Positions 4,584-17,818 of a DNA stretch of 43,633 nucleotides are shown here, in pieces. The notes beneath the pieces were generated by a model. The model saw only the letters and a list, made by a program, of their open reading frames with translations, searched no databases and was not told the DNA's origin. The stretch is from a virus. Its lineage: Duplodnaviria > Heunggongvirae > Uroviricota > Caudoviricetes. Position 1 is the first letter of the stretch. The number at the start of each line of letters is the position of its first letter. The stretch is taken from the IMG/VR virus record IMGVR_UViG_2563366881_000003; one strand, written 5' to 3'. A program made the translations under genes and the position numbers.

Positions 4584-5282
4584 TCACTCTCCTTTGATGC
4601 CAGTGTTTAGAACCTGACAAGCCTCTTTGAGCACCCAGTCAACAGCGTCTTTCCATGCTCCGGTTTCGACTGGCGGATTCTCACGCTTTACCTGTTCATA
4701 GAAACGCACCGCTTTAATCAGTCCTTCAGGTACTACTGGCGATGGCTGTTTAGCTTCTAAATCAGCAATTCTGTCAACTACGGCATCTACTGCATCTGAA
4801 AAACCGAACCAGTTACTCCACTCAGGCCTATCCCCGGTTGCTGCAAAATACATATCAGCTAAAGCAGACTCAGCATGGTCACGCTCGTTAATGAGTTGCT
4901 CTTCGCTTTTCTCCAGTTCAGCAATACGCTTACTTCCATCCGAGATAACACCTTCGTAATACTCGCGCTGCTCGTTGAGTTTTGATTTTGCCAACTCCAG
5001 TTGTTTTGTTAGTTCCGCAATACGGCAAACATCGTTGATACGCGTTTCCTCTAATGCGTTGATCTCATCCAGTAGTGCCAGCACGGTTTCTGGTCCGGCC
5101 AGAAATTTGAAGGCGTTGAGGGCATCAATATCAACACCGCTATCTTTAAGTTCCTGTTCGCTTATCAGATCATCATCAACTGGCAACATTAACAGGCGTT
5201 CCATTGCCGGAATTGCACGCTCTGCCGCCTCACGCAGTGCCTGATAGTCAATCTTGCTCATTGGTTGCCTCCTTTGCGCCAC
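4584..5282 (-). CDS. Ead/Ea22-like protein
   Basis: 232 aa with central coiled-coil region; resembles the Ea22-like family common at this position in lambdoid phages. Confidence 0.55.
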
Positions 5283-5458
5283 GTCGCATTCAGATATCTG
5301 TTGTCGTTAACAGAACCGAAACTCTTTCTCTTAAGCAATTCCTCTCTCGATGGCATTGGCTTTACGCGTTGGCGAATAATCATTTCTGCCGGAAGAATGC
5401 CGGGATTGTATGCAAGTCCTCTCATGGTAAATTCCTCAGTCATTACTGATAGCGCCAT
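5258..5458 (-). CDS. Small hypothetical protein (66 aa; start uncertain)
   Basis: ORF in operon context only. Confidence 0.3.
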
Positions 5459-5732
5459 AGCGTGAGCGGTAATTACGCAGGCGCGGGTCGATATATTCAG
5501 GGAAGTTGGTATATGTGGCTTTGCGGAATGGTCTCATTGCTGTTTCGTTTGTTCGGTCCTTCTCCTGTTTTAGCGCGAGTTGTATATCGCGTCTAAAATT
5601 GCGCTCCGCTTTTGTTTCTGGTGTCAGAGCAAGAAACGCGTCGAAATTGTTTTTGATATTTTCCAGCACCTCCGCCTTGGAGCTACCGGAGCAGTTGCGC
5701 GGGTCATCCGCACCATACAGAGGCGCTGGCAT
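5436..5732 (-). CDS. Hypothetical phage protein, 98 aa
   Basis: ORF in operon context only. Confidence 0.4.
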
Positions 5733-5755
5733 AATGGGAGCCTTATTTTCAGTAA

Positions 5756-6343
5756 TCAGAAAGGAGGGTAATCGTTCTGGCTGTAACCATAATCATCTGC
5801 ATGATTCTGGCTTACGTTTTTAGAGCGATTGTCTTTATCTTTGAGGCTGGCAACCATGTTGGCGATAGTTTCTGGTTGCTTGCCTTCTGCCTTTTCTTTA
5901 AGGGTTTGACCTGTTTGTGCAATAAACGGGATGCGTATTTCCATCTGGTAGCTGTCTGCGCCAGTCTTTTTGTTTGTGGTTAATACTTTCTGGAGCACTA
6001 ACCCGATTTTCTTTCCATGAAATTCAGGTGCAACAAATTTACTGGCGGAAACCATATGTTGTGTTAATTGTCCAATCCCGGCACACCCCATCATGGCGTG
6101 AACGACATTTGCGCCAAATTTGTTTTCCGTGCCGTCATTTTTCTGAACACAAACGCTAAGATACTGGATTTTACGTCCGTCGTCGGATTCTCCAGAAAAC
6201 TCAATAAATTTGGCTCCTTTTTCTGATTGCTTTAGTTCTGCTTCAGTAATGGTAATGATATGAGCGCCAGTTTCGTTAATAAAACCACCTTGCCCTGCGG
6301 TCAGTGCTGCTTCTTCGTTATAAGTAAAAATCACGTTGCTCAT
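5756..6343 (-). CDS. DUF669-type phage ssDNA-binding protein (Sak4-associated)
   Basis: 195 aa, immediately downstream of and overlapping the Sak4-like ATPase gene; a typical pairing. Confidence 0.6.
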   Translation of the reverse strand: MSNVIFTYNEEAALTAGQGGFINETGAHIITITEAELKQSEKGAKFIEFSGESDDGRKIQYLSVCVQKNDGTENKFGANVVHAMMGCAGIGQLTQHMVSASKFVAPEFHGKKIGLVLQKVLTTNKKTGADSYQMEIRIPFIAQTGQTLKEKAEGKQPETIANMVASLKDKDNRSKNVSQNHADDYGYSQNDYPPF

Positions 6344-7020
6344 GCGGCGTTTTCCTTAATTTGATGAACATTATTGATGCCGTAGTAATCACAAACAGTG
6401 GCATCGACGAAAGAGAGATCGTTATCAATCTCATTGGAATCAAACATTCCCATTGGGGATTTAACTGTGTCTGCACCGTTGTTTTTTGTGGTGAAAAAGA
6501 ACTGGTCATCACGGGTAAGGGTGCGAAGAACTATAGTAAACATGCCTTCGACAGTGATTTTCTCGTCCAGCATTTTGCCGATAGTTTTCATTTTCACGCG
6601 CCCAATAGGGGTTTCTTCGGTGTGCGCAAGAAAATAGACTCTCAGGTCATCAGGTGCATCCTGTGCAGCCTTAATCACCTCCCATGCGTGGCGTCCTATC
6701 TCAGTAAATTTATCAAATGATTTCTCTTCTGAGCGGCGCATAAACTCATTGCTCATCACATACTGGAAGTCATCAACAATAACGATTCTTTTCCCGTATT
6801 CGTGAGCACGCTTAATTACGGCAACTATTACGTCCCATTTGTCAGTGGTAACTACGGTTCCTTTTTTTGCTCTGGCATCCCATGCAAGCCAGTCTTTTGA
6901 TTTAAATGGTAGCGGCTTGCCTATTGGTTTTATAAGTATTGCTTCCTCTGGATTGATATTTCTCATGCTGGTTGATTTTCCGGTGCCAGACTCACCGAGT
7001 ATTAATGTCGCAGTTCCCAT
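6340..7020 (-). CDS. Sak4-like RecA-fold ATPase (phage recombination)
   Basis: Walker A GESGTGKS at the N-terminus, Walker B-like IVIVDD; 226 aa. Confidence 0.7.
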   Translation of the reverse strand: MGTATLILGESGTGKSTSMRNINPEEAILIKPIGKPLPFKSKDWLAWDARAKKGTVVTTDKWDVIVAVIKRAHEYGKRIVIVDDFQYVMSNEFMRRSEEKSFDKFTEIGRHAWEVIKAAQDAPDDLRVYFLAHTEETPIGRVKMKTIGKMLDEKITVEGMFTIVLRTLTRDDQFFFTTKNNGADTVKSPMGMFDSNEIDNDLSFVDATVCDYYGINNVHQIKENAA

Positions 7021-7028
7021 AATTCACC

Positions 7029-7229
7029 TCAGAATGGTAATTCGGATGGGGAGGAAAGAAACTCTCGCTCATTCATGCGCTCTCTTTGCGCCTGCCATAA
7101 ACAAAGTTGTTTCTTTGATTTATCTCCCGCTTTACGCCAGTAACGAGCCTCAGCAATGTGATATTCTCTTTTTAATCGACTTAACTCTGGAGTTTTCGCT
7201 AGTTCTACCGGAATCATTTTGACCTCCAT
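7029..7229 (-). CDS. Small hypothetical protein, 66 aa
   Basis: ORF only. Confidence 0.35.
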   Translation of the reverse strand: MEVKMIPVELAKTPELSRLKREYHIAEARYWRKAGDKSKKQLCLWQAQRERMNEREFLSSPSELPF

Positions 7230-7453
7230 TTTCGGTAGGCTTCTACGGCTTCACGAAACATCTTTTCATCGCCAATAAAAGTGGCGATAGTGAATTTAGT
7301 CTGGATAGCCATAAGTGTTTTATCCATTTTGGGGAACTCCTGGCTGATTAAGTACGTCGATGAGTCGTTTCCATCCGTCACGTAATTTACGTGTGATTCG
7401 CTCAAGTAAAGATTCGGAAGGGCAGCCAGCAACAGGCCACCCTGCAATGGCAT
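7214..7453 (-). CDS. Small hypothetical protein (79 aa, or 37 aa from internal ATG at 7327)
   Basis: ORF; internal ATG has a GGAG 9 nt upstream. Confidence 0.3.
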   Translation of the reverse strand: MPLQGGLLLAALPNLYLSESHVNYVTDGNDSSTYLISQEFPKMDKTLMAIQTKFTIATFIGDEKMFREAVEAYRKWRSK

Positions 7454-7541
7454 ATTGCATGGTGTGCTCCTTATTCATTTACACTTGAAATTGCTCCGTG
7501 TATTCACTCGTTGGAATGAATACACAGTGCTTATTCGCAGC

Positions 7542-7868
7542 CTACATAATCATTCCGGTTATTATTACCATTTCAATATCACTATCTTTCATAATGATTG
7601 GAGTTGAGTTATCAACTTTACTTTTACTCCATTTTCCTGCATCAGTTTTTACCGTTCCACAATAAGAAAGCCAATCATCATCACAATGTTCTGGATCGCT
7701 AATTCTAACAAGAACACGTGATAGTGCTTTTTCGATACTTTCATCACAATCAGCATTTATGTAATTGCCGTGAGACAATTTCAAATCGTTAACCTCATCT
7801 TCATTGGCATCAAAAATATAGATTTCAGTCGACTCTGGAACATTTTCATAAACCATTAAAATTTTCAT
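7542..7868 (-). CDS. Acidic hypothetical protein, 108 aa
   Basis: ORF with GGGG upstream of ATG; about 24 Asp/Glu against about 11 Lys/Arg. Confidence 0.5.
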   Translation of the reverse strand: MKILMVYENVPESTEIYIFDANEDEVNDLKLSHGNYINADCDESIEKALSRVLVRISDPEHCDDDWLSYCGTVKTDAGKWSKSKVDNSTPIIMKDSDIEMVIITGMIM

Positions 7869-7887
7869 TTTACCCCATATTGTTTAT

Positions 7888-7912
7888 GCCAAAAATAAAG
7901 GCCGACTATGCG
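7888..7912 (-). terminator. Rho-independent terminator after the membrane-protein gene (minus strand)
   Basis: Hairpin AGGCCG-catagt-CGGCCT followed by TTATTTTTGG on the minus strand. Confidence 0.55.
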
Positions 7913-7920
7913 GCCTGAAA

Positions 7921-8370
7921 TTACTTAACCAATGATGCTGCATATTCGATAAGGTAAAGCTTTGGAGCCAGCCAAATTTTTAACCAAGTCATATTGGTTA
8001 CTGCATCAATAATAAAAATCCCCCACAGAGTCAAAACTCCAACCAATGGCATGATAAGAAGATTAATATCACCTTTGCTATCCCAAACCATTGTCGGCCT
8101 GTATTTGGGATTTCCTTTCTCCCATGAATATCCTTCATCACCGATTTTACCTATCTCAACTCTCTGGCACTGCTTCTTCATAAACCAGAAAACCAGTGGG
8201 ATTGTTAGAATGGCTATTAATGTTTTAATCATACTGTCAACCATATTCCATAGCAGCAACTGATGAACAACATCAGGAATCTGTGCCTGGCTAAATGAAA
8301 CAGCCGCGTCTATTCCATTGCTGGCTTTTTGCAGTAGTTCTACGAGAATCTTGTTTGCTTGTTCTTCCAT
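7921..8370 (-). CDS. Membrane protein with two predicted TM helices, 149 aa
   Basis: Hydrophobic stretches LIAILTIPLVFWF and LLIMPLVGVLTLWGIFII; own terminator; divergent promoter region shared with the SieB-like gene. Confidence 0.55.
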   Translation of the reverse strand: MEEQANKILVELLQKASNGIDAAVSFSQAQIPDVVHQLLLWNMVDSMIKTLIAILTIPLVFWFMKKQCQRVEIGKIGDEGYSWEKGNPKYRPTMVWDSKGDINLLIMPLVGVLTLWGIFIIDAVTNMTWLKIWLAPKLYLIEYAASLVK

Positions 8371-8513
8371 ATATCACCTTAAATAGTGGATTGCGGTTGT
8401 AAAGATTGTGCCTGTCTTTTAACCACATCAGGCTCGGTGGTTCTCGTGTACCCCTACAGCGAGAAATCGGATAAACTCTATTCACCCCTACAGAGAGCAA
8501 AAGAGAAACGCCG

Positions 8514-9095
8514 ATGAACAACTCATGGTGGCAGGAACTAATGCATTTTTTCCTGCAAGGAATGACACTTAAACAGTTGATTCATATGCTAATCATCCTG
8601 ATCATATTGATTATTGTTATGCCGGTAAGCGTAAAAGAATGGATAAACCTGCATAATCCAGAAATCCTTCCTCATTACTGGATGTATTACATCCTGTTGT
8701 TTTGCGTTAGCTATGTGCTTAACGGCGTTGTTAATTCCGCTTATTACGCTGTGACTGAAAGAATTGAGGTATTCGCTGCTCAGAAGCGCAAATCTAAAGA
8801 AGAGAAATACGTGCAAGATTTGTTTGATTCGTTAACTCTTGGAGAAAGAGCGTATTTGGCACTCGCTGTAGTCGCTAATAACCAGCTACAAACGGAAAAG
8901 GGAAGCCCTGAAGCAATCTCATTGCTCGAAAAAGGGCTTCTTATTCGGATACCTTCTGCTACTGGATATCCTGAAATCGACCGTTTTGTTATCCCAGAAC
9001 GCTATAGAAATGAGTGCTACATTAGGTTTGCTGGGAAGAAAGACAGTCTTATGGATGAACTTATCGCTCAGGATAAGCACGGCAAAAACAAGTAA
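8514..9095 (+). CDS. SieB-like superinfection-exclusion membrane protein (candidate)
   Basis: 193 aa, two N-terminal TM helices plus soluble C-terminal domain; size, architecture and early-left location resemble SieB of lambda/P22; transcribed opposite to the leftward operon. Confidence 0.45.
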   Translation: MNNSWWQELMHFFLQGMTLKQLIHMLIILIILIIVMPVSVKEWINLHNPEILPHYWMYYILLFCVSYVLNGVVNSAYYAVTERIEVFAAQKRKSKEEKYVQDLFDSLTLGERAYLALAVVANNQLQTEKGSPEAISLLEKGLLIRIPSATGYPEIDRFVIPERYRNECYIRFAGKKDSLMDELIAQDKHGKNK

Positions 9096-9241
9096 TTAGC
9101 AAATTAATTTATCATCTCGCCGTCAGTTGTTTTGATTTCCGGTAGCCTGCCGCGTAAATGGCTACGTTTGGCAGGCACACAGCACCACCTTCAACTTCCT
9201 TCTAACGCGTTCCTGCAAGCGAAATGGCTCTTGAAACACGT

Positions 9242-9775
9242 TTACTGGCTCCGTCCATGATTTTCATGAAAGCCATATAGTGCATTGGCTTCTTTCCTTG
9301 CTTGTTTGGCATCATCTAAAAGTTTGAATGAGCCTAGGTATTTTCGTTTTCCATCCACAGTTATCGATGCAACATAAAACCCATGCTCTTTTCTTTCTTC
9401 AACACCTGTAACTCCAGTTGATGAAGATGATTTTAAAGGCATGTTTTTCATATTCTCTTTGAAAGAAACGCTTCTTAAATTGGAGATTCTGTTGTCATCC
9501 TTAACGCCGTTTATGTGATCAATCACATCAGGCCAGTAGCCATGCACGTAAAGCCATGCAAGTCTGTGAGACTTAAATTTTTTACCTCCAATATTTATTC
9601 TCAGATAACCCTTGTTGTCAGGTGAGCCAGCCTTTTTACCTGGATACTTCTTGTTCCACGTCAAGGCAGCTCTGTTATCCGCAAACAAATGCTTTGCTCT
9701 CGGCTTCCAATAAAAGTCACCACTCACAGGATTGTAATGAAGAATCTCCCTTACAGACACTTGAGTAAGATCCAC
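9242..9775 (-). CDS. HNH endonuclease with AP2-like DNA-binding domain (paralog 1)
   Basis: Motif HRLAWLYVHG...IDHINGVKDDNRISNLR, C-terminal GV(T/S)... AP2-like segment; paralogous to three other ORFs in the window. Confidence 0.8.
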   Translation of the reverse strand: MDLTQVSVREILHYNPVSGDFYWKPRAKHLFADNRAALTWNKKYPGKKAGSPDNKGYLRINIGGKKFKSHRLAWLYVHGYWPDVIDHINGVKDDNRISNLRSVSFKENMKNMPLKSSSSTGVTGVEERKEHGFYVASITVDGKRKYLGSFKLLDDAKQARKEANALYGFHENHGRSQ

Positions 9776-10017
9776 TTAAACCTCCTAACAAAAACACTTC
9801 AATAACCCTCCGGTTATGGAAATGTTCTTTTGTAGTGAGCAGCATTGCCGTTCATCCTGAACCCGCCGCGCTCCCGACGCATGGTTTAAAGACGCGCCGT
9901 TCGTCTATGGGCTTATGATGTACTTAAAGTTCATTAATGTAAAGTACAAATAGTACATTTTATGGGTATAAAAAGCTCACTACATCATAAGTTAGTGAAC
10001 TTTAAGGAAATTTATTT

Positions 10018-10725
10018 TTATCCGAATCGCTTGTAATCGATTGACTGCCTAATGAGGACTTTGGCTAGAATGTGAAGTTGCTCTTCTTCACCTTCTTCTA
10101 TGTACCATCGATCATAAGCGGCATTGTCAGAGATGACGGCAAGCCTGTTCTTTTGCATTTGCAGGCGCTTAACGTGCATTGTTTTCCCGTATACAAACAC
10201 ATAAATGCCATCGCCATCAAAATAGGTTATGGATACATCAACAAAGATCTCATCTCCCGGATTGATGGTTCCCTCCATGCTGTCACCGCGAACCGTGATG
10301 ACTTTTACGCTTTCCTGTGGCCTTCCATTAAATAAAATTCTTGCCTGCTCGGGCGTATATTCAATTGCTCTTATCTTTTCTATAAATTCATTGGAAACCA
10401 TGGTTCCTGGCCCGGCGCTCGCCTGAACATCCAATACATCAACACGATAAGAATCATTTGATCTTGATAGATGATTTACCGTGATACCGTCATAATCAGC
10501 ATAGCCATGCAGATATGCAGCAGTAGTTCCCAGCACCGAAGCCAGAGATTCCATCTTGTCTTTTCTTGGTATTGACTCCCCGTTGAACCATTTACTAATG
10601 GCTTTTGGTGTGACCTTAAGCCTGACAGCTAAATCAGCCTGCCTACCATGCAAAGGTAATCCCGCTTTATCACAGGCCAGCGCAAGCCTCTGCGAGAAAG
10701 TTTCACGCTCTTTCTGTTGAACCAT
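10018..10725 (-). CDS. cI: CI-type prophage repressor (HTH plus S24 LexA-like peptidase domain)
   Basis: C-terminal GDSMEGTINPGDEIFVD ... HVKRL (Ser/Lys dyad); start at MVQQKE (ATG 10725) lies inside an operator palindrome with no SD, consistent with a leaderless transcript. Confidence 0.8.
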   Translation of the reverse strand: MVQQKERETFSQRLALACDKAGLPLHGRQADLAVRLKVTPKAISKWFNGESIPRKDKMESLASVLGTTAAYLHGYADYDGITVNHLSRSNDSYRVDVLDVQASAGPGTMVSNEFIEKIRAIEYTPEQARILFNGRPQESVKVITVRGDSMEGTINPGDEIFVDVSITYFDGDGIYVFVYGKTMHVKRLQMQKNRLAVISDNAAYDRWYIEEGEEEQLHILAKVLIRQSIDYKRFG

Positions 10726-10733
10726 AAGTTCAA
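10717..10733. promoter_or_regulatory. Operator (OR3/OR2-like) palindrome TTGAACcataaGTTCAA overlapping the cI start codon
   Basis: 17-bp site with perfect 6-bp inverted half-sites; a second copy occurs 57 bp away. Confidence 0.6.
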
Positions 10734-10745
10734 CTATATTAGGTA

Positions 10746-10790
10746 TTGACTGTACTATCAGTTCCGTCATAATATGAACCATAAGTTCAC
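10746..10790 (+). promoter_or_regulatory. pR-like promoter (TTGACT-16/17-CATAAT) with OR1-like operator TGAACcataaGTTCA at 10775-10789
   Basis: Consensus-like sigma70 hexamers upstream of cro; operator palindrome overlaps the transcription start region. Confidence 0.6.
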
Positions 10791-10804
10791 CACAGGAGAG
10801 AAGC

Positions 10805-11035
10805 ATGAACGAAGTTACGTTTGGAGAAGTTATCAAATCCGTTCGAGTTTCTGTTGTGGCTGATGTTTGTGGACTTACGCCAAAAGCCATCTATAAGTGG
10901 CTTGAGCGTGGTTCTCTGCCGCGTACCGAGTTCACTGGTGAAACCGAATATGCGGATAAGATCGCCAAGGCATCAGGCGGCAAGTACTCAGCAGCACAGA
11001 TTCGCCGTATCGGTAAACAGCAGTTTGTTATGTAA
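10805..11035 (+). CDS. cro: Cro-like repressor
   Basis: 76-aa HTH-like protein divergent from cI, SD AGGAGAG upstream. Confidence 0.7.
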   Translation: MNEVTFGEVIKSVRVSVVADVCGLTPKAIYKWLERGSLPRTEFTGETEYADKIAKASGGKYSAAQIRRIGKQQFVM

Positions 11036-11156
11036 TAAAAATGTACTTTTAGTACCGAACGGCCCGGTATACGGTCGGGTGCCCGGCGTGGTCAAGGATG
11101 ACTGTCAATGGTGCACGATAAAAACCCAAATTATTTACCTATGGAGATAGTAAGAA

Positions 11157-11453
11157 ATGACACAAGCAAGTTACAGCAAGCCAACACAGCGAGAAATTGA
11201 TCGCGCTGAAACTGATTTACTCATCAACCTGTCAACGCTTACCCAGCGCGGTCTGGCAAAGATGATTGGCTGTCATGAATCGAAGATAAGCAGAACGGAC
11301 TGGAGATTTATTGCTTCGGTCTTGTGTGCTTTCGGAATGGCATCAGACATCAGTCCGATTAGCAGGGCTTTTAAGTATGCGCTTGATGAAATCACAAAGA
11401 AAAAATCCCCGGTGGCCGCCGGGGACTCTAAGCAAATTGATATGCAATTCTGA
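11157..11453 (+). CDS. cII: CII-like transcriptional activator
   Basis: C-terminus KKKSPVAAGDSKQIDMQF resembles recalled lambda CII C-terminus (KKRPAATERSEQIQMEF); HTH GLAKMIGCHESKISR. Confidence 0.8.
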   Translation: MTQASYSKPTQREIDRAETDLLINLSTLTQRGLAKMIGCHESKISRTDWRFIASVLCAFGMASDISPISRAFKYALDEITKKKSPVAAGDSKQIDMQF

Positions 11454-11478
11454 GGGAATTACTGGATCAATCCACAGG
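11398..11478 (-). ncRNA. oop-like antisense RNA (candidate)
   Basis: Minus-strand hairpin TCCCCGGcggccaCCGGGGA followed by T6 inside the 3-prime end of cII, with a CATAAT-like -10 about 77 nt upstream; mirrors lambda oop. Confidence 0.4.
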
Positions 11479-11485
11479 AGTCATT

Positions 11486-11647
11486 ATGACAAAACGTCGT
11501 AAGAAATACCAGGAAAAAGAAGAGATTCGACACCCTGATTCACCTGAGGGATTAGTGGTAGCCGCAGCAAATAACAGGGCGTTCGCAGAGCGCCTTGTTG
11601 GTGTTTACAGACTAGCCAAAGCAGGAGTGAAACATGGGCGTCGTTAA
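11486..11647 (+). CDS. Small basic protein, 53 aa, at the cII-O junction
   Basis: ATG with GGAG 7 nt upstream; translated by hand; absent from the 60-aa-minimum ORF track. Confidence 0.4.
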   Translation: MTKRRKKYQEKEEIRHPDSPEGLVVAAANNRAFAERLVGVYRLAKAGVKHGRR

Positions 11648-12464
11648 GTTAGCTGATTACAGGCCTCAACTGGAGGTCGTGGAGCATCGCGTGGCAGAAC
11701 TCGAAGATGGCTACACTCGGACTGCAAACACACTGTTAGAAGCCGCCATGCTTTCTGGACTTACTCTACATCAGTTACTGATTGTTATGGCTGTGTGGCG
11801 CAAGACATACGGTTACAACAAAAAAATAGATTGGATCGGAAACGAACAGTTCGCTGAACTCACTGGCATGGCACCAACCAAATGCTCTACCGCCAAAAAC
11901 GAGCTTATCAGAATGGGAGTTCTCATTCAGGTGGGGCGTCAAGTTGGTATGAATACAAACATTTCCGAGTGGAAAACGAAAGTTAACGGATTCGGTAAAA
12001 CATTTACTAATTCAGTAAAACAAACCTTCACTAAATCGGTAAAAAGCAATTTACCGAATCAGTCAAACACAAAAGACAATATACAAAAGACAATAAATAC
12101 AAATACCCCCTTACCCCCTAACGGGGGCGGCGATGGGAAGGTTAAACCTGAACGTCGCAAGGCAGAACGCATCGACTACGAATCCTTCCTGAACGCCTAC
12201 AACACCGAAGTCGGTGACAGACTGCCACACGCTGTTGCGGTCAACGAGAAACGCAAACGCCGCCTGAAGAAAATCATCCCGCAACTGAAAACGCCAAACG
12301 TGGACGGTTTCAGAGCGTATGTCAGGGCGTTTGTGCATCAGGCCAAGCCGTTTTACTTCGGAGACAACGACACGGGCTGGACGGCCGATTTTGATTACCT
12401 GTTGAGGGAAGATTCGTTAACGGGAGTACGGGAAGGGAAGTTTGCAGACAGGGGGATTGCATGA
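11634..12464 (+). CDS. Replication initiator, lambda O / P22 gp18-like
   Basis: N-terminal region resembles recalled lambda O (…[15 protein letters not shown]…WRKTYGYNK…); internal iteron/AT-rich origin. Confidence 0.8.
11995..12120 (+). repeat. Replication origin: iterons TC(G/A)GTAAAA at 12001, 12021 and 12045 plus AT-rich tract, inside the O-like gene
   Basis: Three direct repeats and one inverted partial copy followed by an A/T-rich stretch, as in ori-lambda. Confidence 0.6.
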
Positions 12465-13837
12465 GACAGGATATCGAAGCTAGCGTTATCGGTGGCCTGC
12501 TGATTGGTGGATTAACACCAACCGCCAGCGACGTTCTGGCAACGCTGGAGCCGGAAGCGTTTTCAATTCCGCTCTACCGGAAAGCCTTCGAGGTTATCCG
12601 CAAGCAGGCGCGAAACAGAAACCTAATCGACGCGCTGATGGTTGCCGAGGCGTGCGGAGAGGAGCATTTCACGTCAATCCTGATGACCAGCAAAAACTGC
12701 CCGAGTGCCGCAAACCTGAAGGGATATGCCGGAATGGTCGCGGATAACTATCACCGCCGTCTGGTGCTGGAAATCATGGATGAAATGCGTGAACCAATTC
12801 AGAGCGGAACCATCGACGCATCGAGTCAAGCGATGGATGAGCTTGTAAAGCGTCTCTCAGCCATCAGAAAGCCCCGTGGCGAGGTTAAACCTGTACGGTT
12901 AGGTGAAATCATCACTGACTACACTGACACGCTTGACAGGCGTCTGAGGAACGGAGAAGAGTCAGATACCCTGAAGACCGGAATCGAAGAACTTGATGCC
13001 ATCACCGGAGGGATGAACGCGGAAGACCTGGTGATAATCGCTGCTCGTCCTGGTATGGGGAAAACCGAGCTGGCGCTGAAGATTGCCGAAGGCGTGGCAA
13101 GTCGTGTTATTCCTGGTTCTGACGTCCGGCGCGGAGTATTGATTTTCTCGATGGAAATGAGCGCATTGCAGATTGCAGAGCGAAGCATTGCCAACGCCGG
13201 GAGGATGTCGGTTAGCGTGCTGCGAAATCCTGCATCGATGGATGACGAAGGCTGGGCACGTGTTGCTAACGGCATGAGTCAGCTTGCAGATTTGGATGTA
13301 TGGGTAGTCGATGCCTCGCGGTTATCGGTCGAAGAAATTCGCTCAATCGCAGAACGGCACAAACAGGAAAATCCAAACCTGTCACTCATCATGGCGGATT
13401 ATCTTGGCCTGATTGAGAAGCCGAAAGCAGATCGCAACGACCTCGCAATTGCTCACATCTCCGGAAGCCTGAAGGCGATGGCGAAAGACCTGAAAACACC
13501 GGTTATCTCCCTGAGTCAGCTTTCGCGCGATGTTGAGAAGCGACCAAATAAACGCCCGACAAACGCAGATTTGCGTGATTCAGGAAGCATTGAGCAGGAC
13601 GCAGACTCAATCATCATGCTCTATCGGGAAGCGGTATATGACGAGAACAGTAGCGCCGCGCCATTTGCTGAAATCATTGTGACGAAAAACCGTTTTGGCT
13701 CACTTGGTACGGTTTACCAGCGATTCTGTAACGGACACTTTGTTGCATGTGACCAGGATGAAGCCAGACAGATTTGCATAGCATCAAATGCACCTGCTTC
13801 GCGTGGCAGACGATATGCACAAGGGGCTGACGTATGA
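12461..13837 (+). CDS. Replicative DNA helicase, DnaB family (P22 gp12-like)
   Basis: 458 aa with Walker [13 protein letters not shown] and DnaB C-terminal motifs. Confidence 0.9.
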
Positions 13838-13909
13838 CCATCTACATCACTGAGCTTGTAACAGGCCTGCTGGTAATCGCAGGCCTTTTTATTTGGGGGA
13901 GGGTAAATC

Positions 13910-14116
13910 GTGGCTGAGTTAATTTTCTCTGCATTGAGGCTTCTCGGTGCTATGTGGATGGTGGCGACGTTCATTGTGGTTGTCGGAAGTTTTGTCCGGT
14001 TGGTAGGCGAAGGTAAAGACCTGGTGGGTGTGCTGTTCGGTAGCATTCTCCTGTGGGTGATTATCGGTGTTATGCCTGTCGCTGTAGCAAAAATGGCGTG
14101 GCGTTTTGTGAGTTGA
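13910..14116 (+). CDS. Small membrane protein (68 aa, GTG start)
   Basis: Two hydrophobic helices; ORF only. Confidence 0.4.
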   Translation: MAELIFSALRLLGAMWMVATFIVVVGSFVRLVGEGKDLVGVLFGSILLWVIIGVMPVAVAKMAWRFVS

Positions 14117-14133
14117 ACTGAGGGTAAGTATCG

Positions 14134-14415
14134 ATGGACGAATCAAGAAAGCAGTTTGAAAGCGTAATAGGCGGAAAATGCTGGTCTGTTCAGAGAACCG
14201 ATAGCGGGGATTATGTGCATGAAAGAGTTCATTTGATGTGGATGGCGTGGAGAGAGTCTCGCTCAGCTATCGAGATTGAATTGCCAGCAAAAAATGATAT
14301 CTCCAGCGATGACTACCCCATTCATGACCTGGTTGATTGGGATGATGGAAGAAACGCTGGAATTCAGGAATGTGCAGAAGCCATCCGCGCTGCTGGAATC
14401 AAAGTGAAGGAGTGA
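14134..14415 (+). CDS. Hypothetical nin-region protein, 93 aa
   Basis: ORF only. Confidence 0.45.
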   Translation: MDESRKQFESVIGGKCWSVQRTDSGDYVHERVHLMWMAWRESRSAIEIELPAKNDISSDDYPIHDLVDWDDGRNAGIQECAEAIRAAGIKVKE

Positions 14416-14417
14416 GC

Positions 14418-14603
14418 ATGAGTCGACGAAGTAGCTTTTTGGGGTTTGTAATATTCCTGTCCTGTACTGGTTACATCGTAATCTGGTCAATTTCGAACAT
14501 TGACCGTGGCGGGGAATATCTCATTGTAATGTTCTTTCCTTTGTTTCTTGGGTGGTACGCCGCAAGGTTGCTGGAAGAATGGGTTTACAGGCATAAAAAA
14601 TAA
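14418..14603 (+). CDS. Small membrane protein, 61 aa
   Basis: Internal Met MSRRSSFLGFVIFLSCTGYIVIW of ORF 14370..14603. Confidence 0.4.
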   Translation: MSRRSSFLGFVIFLSCTGYIVIWSISNIDRGGEYLIVMFFPLFLGWYAARLLEEWVYRHKK

Positions 14604-14614
14604 AGGAGTATTCA

Positions 14615-15025
14615 GTGAAGCAAACAATCTTCCTCAGAACTAAGCAACAACAGTAAGCCGCAATCAACGCCATCCTCGCAACACCACTCGATAAAGACAA
14701 GCCAGTCACCATCCGCATTACTGACTACAAGCGCAACCTTGACCAGAACGCAAAATTTCACGCGATGGTCGCAGATATCGCCAGGCAAGTTCAGTGGCGC
14801 GATAAATGGTTAAAACCAGAACAATGGAAGGTTTTGTTGATAAGCGGTCATGCAGTGGCAACAAAGCAGGAAGCTGATGTTTTGCCCGGGCTTGAAGGCG
14901 AATACGTCAACATTCGCGAAAGCAGCGCGCAGATGAGTGTGAAGCGTATGGCAAGTCTGATTGAGTACACGACAGCATGGGCTATTGGTCAGGGTGTCAG
15001 ATTTACCGACAGGAGGTACGAATGA
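14615..15025 (+). pseudogene. ninB: ninB (recombination protein NinB/Orf) interrupted by an in-frame TAA at 14654-14656
   Basis: GTG 14615 with AGGAG upstream encodes MKQTIFLRTKQQQ, then TAA, then the same frame continues AAINAILATPLDKDK...NLDQNAKFHAMVADIARQVQWRDKWL matching recalled lambda NinB across the stop; codons checked by hand. Confidence 0.7.
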
Positions 15026-15198
15026 GACGACAGCGACGAAGTTTCACCGACATCATCTGCGAAAACTGCAAATACCTTCCAACGAAACGCTCCAGAAATA
15101 AACGCAAGCCAATCCCAAAAGAATCTGACGTAAAAACCTTCAACTACACGGCTCACCTGTGGGATATCCGGTGGCTAAGACATCGTGCGAGGAAATGA
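15022..15198 (+). CDS. NinD/NinE-like small basic protein
   Basis: 58 aa [22 protein letters not shown]...; start overlaps ninB stop (ATGA). Confidence 0.55.
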
Positions 15199-15575
15199 CA
15201 ATGGATTATTCACAGTTAAGTGATTTTGAAATTAACTTAAAAGTCGCGCATATCGTGCTAGGAAAAAACAATTACGACTGGGATCCAGAAAAGAAAGAAG
15301 TTTACTTGGCTGGAATTGATGGTGGTGAGTTTTTGCCTTGCGGATATTTTGACCCATGTAATATGGCCGCTGACGCATATCCGATCATCACTGAAAACAA
15401 AATTAGCACCATGTGGATGACAGCGGAAAAAGAATGGTGCGCATGGTCAGGAGGTGATTTAGAGGAAGGTTGTTGGGAATGGGAAAATATTCCTGACTAC
15501 TGCTTCTGCGGTGAATCGCCTCTCCGCGCCGCCATGATTGTATTTCTCATGATGCAGGACGCCAATAATGCTTAG
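15195..15575 (+). CDS. Hypothetical nin-region protein, 126 aa
   Basis: Internal Met MTMDYSQ; start overlaps upstream stop (ATGA). Confidence 0.5.
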
Positions 15576-15744
15576 CCCATCCCAATCCCTTCAATACCAG
15601 AAAGAAAGCGTCGAGCGAGCTTTAACGTGCGCTAACTGCGGTCAGAAGCTGCATGTGCTGGAAGTTCACGTGTGCTCCGATTGCTGCGCAGAACTGATGA
15701 GCGATCCGAATAGCTCAATGTACGAGGAAGAAGACGATGAATGA
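15568..15744 (+). CDS. ninF: NinF-like protein
   Basis: 58 aa [30 protein letters not shown]... matches recalled lambda NinF; hand-translated. Confidence 0.65.
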   Translation: MLSPSQSLQYQKESVERALTCANCGQKLHVLEVHVCSDCCAELMSDPNSSMYEEEDDE

Positions 15745-16459
15745 GTTAATAAATGGCAATGCCATCAAAATGACAAGCATTGAAATCGCTGAGTTGGTTG
15801 GTAAGCGTCATGACAATGTGAAACGTACCATCGAAACGCTGGCTAAAAATGGTGTTATCCGGCTTCCTCAAATTGAGGTTTCCGAAAGAATCAATAACTT
15901 AGGGTTCAATGTTCAGTACGAGTATTACGTCTTCGAAGGCGAACAAGGAAAGCGAGACAGTATTGTCGTTGTAGCCCAGTTGTCGCCGGAATTCACCGCT
16001 CGTCTTGTTGACCGTTGGCGAGAGCTTGAAGAAGCTGCGGTTAATATCCCCAAAACGCTACCAGAAGCGTTGCGCCTTGCTGCTGATCTTGCTGAGCAGA
16101 AAATGCAACTGGAAAACCAGCTCGCAATTGCCGCACCTAAAGTTGAGTTTGCCGATCGCGTTGGCGAGGCCAGCGGAATTTTGATTGGAAACTTTGCAAA
16201 GGTTGTTGGAATTGGTCCAAACAAACTGTTTGCGTGGATGCGCGATCACAAAATCCTTATTGCTTCAGGTTCCCGGCGCAATGTGCCAATGCAGGAATAT
16301 ATGGATCGCGGCTATTTCACAGTGAAAGAAACAGCGGTCAACACAAATCACGGGATACAGATATCGTTCACCACAAAAATCACCGGGCGTGGTCAACAGT
16401 GGCTGACCAGAAAGCTGCTCGATAACGGAATGCTGAAAGTAACAGGGGAGGCTGCTTAA
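15737..16459 (+). CDS. Rha-family phage regulatory protein / antirepressor-like (KilAC-type C-terminal domain)
   Basis: N-terminal motif SIEIAELVGKRHDNVKRTIETL typical of Rha; 240 aa. Confidence 0.65.
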   Translation: MNELINGNAIKMTSIEIAELVGKRHDNVKRTIETLAKNGVIRLPQIEVSERINNLGFNVQYEYYVFEGEQGKRDSIVVVAQLSPEFTARLVDRWRELEEAAVNIPKTLPEALRLAADLAEQKMQLENQLAIAAPKVEFADRVGEASGILIGNFAKVVGIGPNKLFAWMRDHKILIASGSRRNVPMQEYMDRGYFTVKETAVNTNHGIQISFTTKITGRGQQWLTRKLLDNGMLKVTGEAA

Positions 16460-16749
16460 TGGCTAATCTACGCAAAGAAGCACGCGGCAGAGAATGCCAG
16501 GTACGTATTTACGGCGTATGCAATGGCAATCCTGAAACTACAGTTCTGGCACATTACCGGATGGCTGGAATTTGCGGAACGGGAATGAAGCCTGACGACC
16601 TGATCGGCGCATGGGCTTGTAGCGCGTGTCACGATGAAATCGACCGACGCACCTATAATCTCGACAACAAAGACGCCAGACTTTACCACCTCGAAGGCGT
16701 GATCAGGACGCAGGCGATACTGCTGAAGGAGGGGAAGATTAAGTCATGA
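16459..16749 (+). CDS. DUF1364 / YbcO-like putative zinc-binding nuclease
   Basis: 96 aa, motif ARGRECQVRIYGVCNGNPETTVLAH...CSACHDEIDRR recalled from DLP12 YbcO. Confidence 0.6.
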   Translation: MANLRKEARGRECQVRIYGVCNGNPETTVLAHYRMAGICGTGMKPDDLIGAWACSACHDEIDRRTYNLDNKDARLYHLEGVIRTQAILLKEGKIKS

Positions 16750-17270
16750 ACGGTAAAAGATATCCAACACAAAAAGAAATCAATGAATTGTATGAATATA
16801 ATAGCGAAACAGGTTTGTTTATATACAAGAGAAGAGAAAGTGTAAGAGAGTGCTGGAATTCAACATATGCCGGTAAGATTGCTGGTTCTATAGATGAAAA
16901 AGGATACGTTCGTATATCTGTAAATAAAAAAGTTTGTCGAGCTCATAGAATCGCATGGATATCCTTTTATGGAAGTGAACCTGATGGGGAAATTGACCAC
17001 ATAAATGGAGTTAAAAGCGATAACAGAATATGCAATTTGCGCGTTGTAGATGATAAACAGAACTCAAGGAACAGAAAAAAGCCTATTAATAATCGCTCTG
17101 GAGTAATGGGGGTTGCCTACTATAAGAAGAATAAAAAGTGGGGCGCATATATAAACAGTGATAATAAAAAGATATTTCTTGGATTATACGATGACATATC
17201 TCTAGCCGTTAATGCCAGAAAATTGGCGGAATCACGATTGGGGTATCACCATAATCATGGGAGAGGATAA
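16746..17270 (+). CDS. HNH endonuclease with AP2-like domain (paralog 2)
   Basis: HRIAWISFYG...IDHINGVKSDNRICNLR; inserted between the ybcO-like gene and rusA. Confidence 0.8.
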   Translation: MNGKRYPTQKEINELYEYNSETGLFIYKRRESVRECWNSTYAGKIAGSIDEKGYVRISVNKKVCRAHRIAWISFYGSEPDGEIDHINGVKSDNRICNLRVVDDKQNSRNRKKPINNRSGVMGVAYYKKNKKWGAYINSDNKKIFLGLYDDISLAVNARKLAESRLGYHHNHGRG

Positions 17271-17633
17271 ATGGCAGAATACAGATTCACACTTCCGTAC
17301 CCACCGTCGCTGAACACCTACTGGCGAAGACGGGGAAGCCAATACTACATCAGCGATAAAGGCCAGAAATACCGAAAAGACGTTCAGCAAATCATCCGCC
17401 AACTCAAGTTAGACATTTTCACCAAATCACGACTACGAATCAAAGTCATCGCAGACGTTCCAGACTCCCGCCGCCGCGACCTCGACAACATTCTTAAAGG
17501 TTTACTCGACCCCCTTATCCACGCCGGATTTGCGGAAGACGACGAGCAATTCGATGACATTCGCGTAATTCGTGGCGTGAAAGTACCAGGCGGAAGGCCT
17601 GGAATAAAAATCACCGAACTGGAGAACGTATGA
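17271..17633 (+). CDS. rusA: Holliday junction resolvase RusA
   Basis: 120 aa MAEYRFTLPYPPSLNTYWRRRG... with DLDN motif. Confidence 0.85.
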   Translation: MAEYRFTLPYPPSLNTYWRRRGSQYYISDKGQKYRKDVQQIIRQLKLDIFTKSRLRIKVIADVPDSRRRDLDNILKGLLDPLIHAGFAEDDEQFDDIRVIRGVKVPGGRPGIKITELENV

Positions 17634-17818
17634 ACGCCACAATTCAAACGATACCAGAGCTTCTTATCCAGACACGAGGCAATCAGACCGAAGTGGCGAG
17701 GATGCTTTCCTGCGCAAGAGGAACAGTGCTCAAGTACAACCGAGACAGCAAAGGTGAGCGTCACGTAATAGTTAACGGCGTCCTGATGGTCAAACAGGGC
17801 AAGAGGGGAAGACGATGA
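17630..17818 (+). CDS. ninH: NinH-like protein
   Basis: YGNQTEVARMLSCARGTVLKY matches recalled lambda NinH (YGNQTEVARRLKCSRGTVRKY). Confidence 0.75.
   Translation: MNATIQTIPELLIQTRGNQTEVARMLSCARGTVLKYNRDSKGERHVIVNGVLMVKQGKRGRR

Follow-up and report, generated by a model that had tools for sequence, protein, structure and literature searches.

Introduction

Orf (NinB) is an accessory mediator that helps to load recombinase onto SSB-coated ssDNA (PMC4118853). As recounted in PMC4118853, which cites Sawitzke and Stahl (1992, 1997) and Poteete (2004), Orf was found as a substitute for recF, recO and recR; the binding of ssDNA and SSB and the substitution for RecFOR in vivo are known for both lambda Orf and YbcN (PMC4118853). 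In the lambda protein, β1-α1-β2 units paired across the dimer form the RAGNYA DNA-binding sheet as well as part of the dimer interface (PMC4118853; PMC2034487). The α2 residues R41, Q45, N46, K48 and W50 line the central channel and are the most conserved, and the substitutions W50A and K48A lower ssDNA binding (PMC4118853). YbcN is encoded by the cryptic prophage DLP12, and its gene is unexpressed without an upstream promoter (PMC4118853).

Here, we describe a ninB gene in a 43,633-nucleotide viral DNA record (IMG/VR IMGVR_UViG_2563366881_000003), the whole of which we refer to as the window. As with ybcN, this is an Orf-family gene located in the nin region of a silent prophage, but the two present opposite states: in ybcN the ORF is intact and the surrounding prophage heavily decayed, whereas the window holds a broken ORF in an apparently intact prophage. 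Compared to lambda orf, with which it shares homology over residues 2–133, the conserved channel residues and the same ninR location, the window copy is a nonsense allele. Its product would represent a divergent subfamily, set apart by a 4–5 residue indel and by the greater length of lambda Orf (146 aa), which has a longer C-terminal helix. The 136-aa NinB proteins of HK620, HK630, phiv205-1 and CUS-3 (WP_000814617.1, QGF19942.1, AFH20806.1) are encoded by genes with the same start and the same length of 411 nt, which are 94–98% identical in DNA sequence to the window ninB and likewise lie after the replication genes and before ninE. These genes have CAA at codon 14; the window has TAA, leaving only a 13-residue peptide. 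We conclude that the window ninB very probably carries a genuine, heritable ochre null allele of an accessory gene that is undergoing ordinary, near-neutral decay. Events of this kind are familiar, the gene itself is well known, and no new mechanism is indicated.

Results

A ninB reading frame with an ochre stop at codon 14

The two ends of the window are the E. coli genes ybhC and ybhB, which flank the lambda attachment site (attB), and the DNA between them is a P22-like (Lederbergvirus-type) prophage with a lambda-type integrase. Its immunity region encodes CII and a cI with an S24 peptidase, and its replication genes are O and a DnaB-type P (12461–13837). From P onward the order is ninB (14615–15025), ninE, NinX, NinF, YbcO, RusA, NinH and Q (17815–18333), in agreement with the gene order that characterizes the NinB family. 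The nin region also contains a Rha/KilAC antirepressor and an HNH ORF, and the late genes comprise those for lysis, terminase, portal, coat, gp4/gp10/gp26, ejection proteins and tailspike.

The original prediction of a GTG start with AGGAG upstream, followed by an in-frame TAA, describes the sequence exactly (Table 1). The start codon occupies 14615–14617, and its anti-Shine-Dalgarno duplex of −8.2 kcal/mol ranks in approximately the top 2% of window positions. From 14615 the window reads GTG AAG CAA ACA ATC TTC CTC AGA ACT AAG CAA CAA CAG TAA, in which codons 2–13 correspond to KQTIFLRTKQQQ. In its unmutated form, the gene has a run of four Gln codons at positions 11–14, each a single C-to-T step away from a stop. 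Beyond the TAA, the frame remains open for 122 sense codons up to a TGA at 15023–15025. Frameshifting was considered and ruled out, as the identical frame runs on across the stop. According to the mechanical ORF list, the first in-frame ATG, GTG or TTG past the TAA is the ATG at 14765, which is codon 51.

The ninE ATG overlaps the ninB TGA (ATGA). It is preceded by a Shine-Dalgarno sequence of its own, AGGAGG at 15011–15016, with a duplex of −11.6 kcal/mol, and ninE should therefore not depend on coupling to ninB translation.

Table 1. Features of the interrupted ninB locus in window coordinates, with lesions of other ninB copies that leave the same 86-aa ORF.
Feature	Position	Strand	Basis or source
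AGGAG Shine-Dalgarno of ninB	14604..14608	+	sequence; 6 nt before the GTG start
ninB codons 1–13, GTG start, MKQTIFLRTKQQQ	14615..14653	+	sole portion still translated from the authentic start
Synonymous C-to-A, CGA to AGA, Arg8	14636	+	window-lineage-specific; absent from the ERR12331472 TAA allele
Premature ochre stop TAA, ninB codon 14	14654..14656	+	CAA (Gln14) to TAA via C-to-T at 14654
Rest of ninB, codons 15–136 and TGA	14657..15025	+	sequence intact; untranslated from the authentic start
86-aa ORF from Met51	14765..15025	+	gene-caller annotation; Pfam NinB positions 51–131 only
ninE, 58 aa	15022..15198	+	Pfam NinE 1–58/58, E = 4e-43
Other copy: ochre CAA to TAA, codon 11	equivalent to 14645–14647		L133, Logan ERR4034897, ~120 nt upstream of locus position 2858
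Other copy: 8-bp deletion	just before Met51		L128, SRR32676547
Other copies: IS with 402-aa DDE_Tnp_1 transposase, IS10-like ends	near codon 39		L127/L130/L136
Other copies: second IS-like junction	near codon 35		L129/L137
Other copies: deletion/mosaic junction	near codon 32		L131/L132

Family assignment and ancestral sequence

With Gln14 restored, the 136-aa product covers the entire Pfam NinB profile (PF05772, 1–131/131; E = 4.6e-53, 178.9 bits against a cut-off of 23.8 bits) and matches lambda Orf (PDB 1PC6) with E = 7e-21 over residues 2–133, which bears out the proposed similarity to NinB before and after the stop. The TAA falls at profile position 14, so that the uninterrupted full-length ORF of the family is lacking in the window. 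The ORF starting at Met51 aligns with the remainder of the profile (E = 3.8e-32).

In the N-terminal half, residue i of the window protein corresponds to residue i+1 of lambda Orf, making Gln14 the equivalent of lambda Gln15. The α2 channel residues are all present in frame, with window R40, Q44, N45, K47 and H49 corresponding to lambda R41, Q45, N46, K48 and W50. Each of them is encoded downstream of the TAA and upstream of Met51, and they are consequently absent from both the 13-residue peptide and a product restarted at Met51.

Comparison with the ninB genes of close relatives established the derived state of the TAA. The annotated 411-nt ninB CDS begins at the position of the window's GTG in E. 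coli CP082824, phiv205-1 and HK630. This disposes of the notion that NinB normally starts at the downstream ATG, since the homologues begin at the upstream codon. A four-way DNA alignment shows CAG CAA in the relatives against CAG TAA in the window. We further collected IMG/VR alleles with a pattern in which only the first base of codon 14 was free. Leaving out the window's own, all 118 comparable complete alleles have C at 14654 and none has T, a count that applies to alleles matching the 34 fixed flanking bases, because the pattern is blind to alleles with other nearby changes such as a TAA at codon 11. These results agree with the single C-to-T change of a Gln codon put forward in the original prediction.

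The gene is otherwise undamaged. Over the 411 nt of ninB, T14654 alone is private to the window, and all differences from the six nearest relatives (L087, L063, L001, L049, L078 and L094) are synonymous, with the exception of Q14*. Fourteen of the sampled relatives encode a protein identical to the Gln-restored NinB. Judged from the alignments, the pattern carries the signature of one recent C-to-T transition at 14654 without subsequent decay.

Recovery of the allele in separate assemblies

A one-base difference from all relatives could also reflect an error of sequencing or assembly, with the true gene being intact. The IMG/VR and RefSeq data offer some grounds for this reading. The single IMG/VR contig with the TAA (L004, IMGVR_UViG_2531839253_000005) is 100% identical to window 14606–18423; it presumably represents the same genome, probably the same assembly, and is thus not independent. 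By 61-nt megablast of 5,426 RefSeq complete E. coli genomes, we found no copy of the TAA in a survey that the 28-nt word requirement restricted to 226 matching records. The exact TAA allele likewise gave 0 matches in genome_contigs and metagenome_contigs, although genome_contigs holds one genome per species and its zero is therefore uninformative with regard to E. coli diversity.

Against an error stand de novo Logan assemblies of raw reads. That of SRR647273 matches window 4765–20462 (15,698 bp) with 100% identity, the codon-8 AGA and the codon-14 TAA included, and this same contig was found in three samples. Since the window's own source is probably among these samples, fully independent confirmation comes mainly from ERR12331472, which belongs to a different project and shows the same TAA with one mismatch in 10,261 bp, namely the distinguishing SNP at 14636. 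The contigs in which the TAA recurs are L125/L138 and L135. With T reproduced in SRR647273 and ERR12331472, we regard a sequencing error at 14654 as very unlikely, to the point of giving it next to no weight, and we take the TAA to be a real feature of the gene.

Apart from the window lineage, the codon-14 ochre was observed in ERR12331472 only. Because ERR12331472 has the TAA without the A at 14636, the nonsense change is most simply placed before the 14636 SNP, and the aligned assemblies indicate that the TAA allele is inherited rather than newly arisen. This qualifies the earlier proposal of a fresh inactivating mutation in an otherwise intact prophage. The one private base, the lack of downstream damage and the open essential genes all speak for it, but "fresh" applies only in a relative sense, because the allele already occurs in at least two isolates, sequenced independently and distinguished by a single synonymous SNP close by.

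As a separate point on annotation, the provirus call of L004 begins 9 nt upstream of the ninB GTG; given its length of 32,816 bp, it would pass the right end of the window by ~3.8 kb. Its boundaries thus exclude the leftmost 13 kb of the prophage and take in host genes.

Possible restart and readthrough

It had been suggested that expression might rely on reinitiation at ATG 14765, and a functional C-terminal NinB fragment could in principle arise by reinitiation or internal initiation at this codon. It is the first in-frame start past the TAA, Met51 is an ATG in 116 of 121 close relatives, and the 86-aa ORF that it opens is annotated by gene callers and scores as NinB. The site itself offers little to a ribosome. 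ATG 14765 has no Shine-Dalgarno sequence (+0.2 kcal/mol, compared to −8.2 at the authentic GTG) and sits 108 nt past the TAA, unlike a restart site, in which a start with an RBS lies close to the upstream stop. Between the TAA and 14765 there is no in-frame ATG, GTG or TTG; the only near-cognates are ATC and ATT codons, all lacking a Shine-Dalgarno sequence. The promoter/terminator scan was negative, with no promoter-like site on the + strand, and the RNA at 14640–14780 folds no better than shuffled sequences (z = −0.01).

The comparison with lambda Orf points in the same direction. The Met51 position is a Cys in the lambda protein, so that an internal Met is not a feature of the family. Moreover, a Met51 product would have neither the β1-α1-β2 unit, which supplies one half of the RAGNYA sheet that the dimer builds together with part of the dimer interface, nor any of the conserved α2 channel residues. 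Judged by analogy with lambda Orf, the 86-aa protein would therefore lack the parts needed for dimerization and ssDNA binding. With no Shine-Dalgarno sequence, a gap of 108 nt and the DNA-binding and dimerization half of the fold missing, reinitiation at ATG 14765 is disfavored, and we consider a functional fragment from this site highly improbable.

Full-length NinB could alternatively be made by readthrough of the stop codon, whether as a programmed event or by means of an ochre suppressor in the host. The perfectly kept frame beyond the TAA would fit this reading, yet such preservation is expected anyway of a recent mutation, and the stop is conserved in none of 118 relatives. Recoding sites are marked by a conserved stop and by a stimulatory RNA or suppressor tRNA; within the window we found neither, as the tRNA scan returned no tRNA or suppressor gene and the Rfam scan no matching element. 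Of the three stop codons, UAA leaks the least in E. coli, and natural ochre-suppressor strains are rare. We thus see hardly any likelihood of readthrough, and favor termination at codon 14 as the fate of translation from the authentic start.

Expected consequences of the stop codon

Ribosomes initiating at the normal GTG would make the 13-residue peptide and then terminate. On this basis, no functional NinB would be made, and we infer a null allele. Loss of orf/ninB is tolerated in lambda, where the nin5 deletion removes the gene and viability is kept. During lytic growth in a RecFOR-proficient host, RecFOR could do the job of NinB, and in the lysogen the nin (pR) operon would be repressed. 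Substitution by RecFOR and silence of the operon in lysogens together suggest that the mutation is neutral or nearly so, and it would simply be carried along in the otherwise intact P22-like prophage between ybhC and ybhB.

In the ~80 nt that follow the stop (14657–14734; 78 nt), C is abundant (30) and G scarce (12). From its composition this stretch is rut-like, and a site of Rho entry might be uncovered by the premature stop; downstream genes could conceivably be subject to Rho-dependent polarity if transcription is not antiterminated.

For annotation, the locus should be labeled a ninB pseudogene (nonsense, codon 14) and not the 86-aa "NinB" of automatic gene callers. With one private base, no secondary damage and open essential phage genes, it offers a clean case of how the decay of a prophage gene begins. 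The TAA allele could also mark the lineage of the E. coli clone that carries the prophage, and the phage could serve recombination studies as a natural orf-null.

Other disrupted ninB copies

A look-up of the exact 86-aa product in a public gene-position index, by which the TAA allele was recovered, returned 23 contigs among 153 billion gene positions, all with the ORF called as a NinB gene. Further natural lesions with this ORF left in place came to light in the same way, namely an independent ochre at codon 11, an 8-bp deletion, an IS insertion, a second, IS-like junction and a deletion or mosaic junction (Table 1). Two apparent truncations were rejected as artifacts: the 86-aa "truncated NinB" of L126/L139 (ENA ERZ28666904) is due to a scaffold gap of Ns, and that of L134 (Logan SRR31437539) to a contig end with the Nextera adapter AGATGTGTATAAGAGACAG. 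Independently of the look-up, CP098187 (L124, NZ_CP098187.1 1655674–1699783) has a PGAP-annotated frameshifted ninB in another P22-like prophage at the same ybhC/ybhB site. In this prophage, the DnaB-type helicase gene is also split, into N- and C-terminal pseudogene pieces ~1 kb apart. Among the 118 IMG/VR ninB alleles, two are broken elsewhere in the gene, while ~98% of the sampled alleles are intact. The other disrupted E. coli prophage copies resemble the window in that an accessory recombination gene is broken and its neighbors are intact, and they differ from it in that each has a lesion other than the codon-14 ochre.

This array of lesions raises the question of whether ninB loss could be adaptive, with inactivation favored in lysogens and the Gln11–Gln14 run providing an easy one-step nonsense target. 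The independent codon-11 TAA, 8-bp deletion, IS insertions and deletion junctions that leave the same 86-aa ORF could be read in this way, as could the frameshifted gene at the same att site and the two broken IMG/VR alleles. If true, such convergent loss could limit prophage-prophage recombination or interference with host RecFOR/SSB. However, the 86-aa look-up selects for N-terminal truncations, and recurrence is expected when 23 contigs are drawn from 153 billion gene positions; the lesions found in this manner are therefore no evidence for selection. The predominance of intact alleles also argues against it, as does repression of the nin operon in lysogens, where NinB would have no obvious cost. 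We accordingly hold adaptive loss to be very improbable, and give equally little credence to its corollary that recurrently selected ninB inactivation in E. coli lysogens represents convergent loss of a phage recombination mediator. The lesions fit ordinary decay of a prophage gene that is dispensable, as we propose for the window allele.

State of the prophage and neighboring genes

Alignment with a related annotated prophage at the same site revealed no internal stops in integrase, excisionase, Q, holin, lysozyme, Rz, terminase, portal, gp10, needle, gp14, gp7, gp20, gp16 or tailspike, with several of the more divergent proteins (e.g., portal, gp7 and gp16) aligned over part of their length only. 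From these reading frames, the prophage is apparently intact apart from ninB.

The presumed recombination partners of NinB are a further point of difference from lambda. Lambda Orf partners Red-β/Exo, whereas the window prophage encodes an AAA_24 (Sak4-like) protein in its early-left region, and the presumed recombinase partner of NinB would here differ from lambda Beta. The early-left recombination module (5436–7020, − strand) is not of the Red or Erf/RecT type; it consists of the AAA_24/AAA_22 (Sak4-like) gene at 6340–7020 (−) and a 195-aa ORF without a Pfam match at 5756–6343 (−), with an Anti-RecBCD_p2 gene directly downstream.

Three ORFs encode HNH_3 endonuclease domains (9242–9775, − strand; 16746–17270, + strand; and 18528–19040, + strand), the last of which also has an AP2 domain. 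Located in the early and nin/Q regions, they look like free-standing insertions of the homing-endonuclease type. Just outside the right end of the prophage, an InsQ/TnpB RNA-guided endonuclease gene (42503–43633, + strand) adjoins ybhB, and an InsQ/TnpB gene is found at this position in related E. coli genomes as well.
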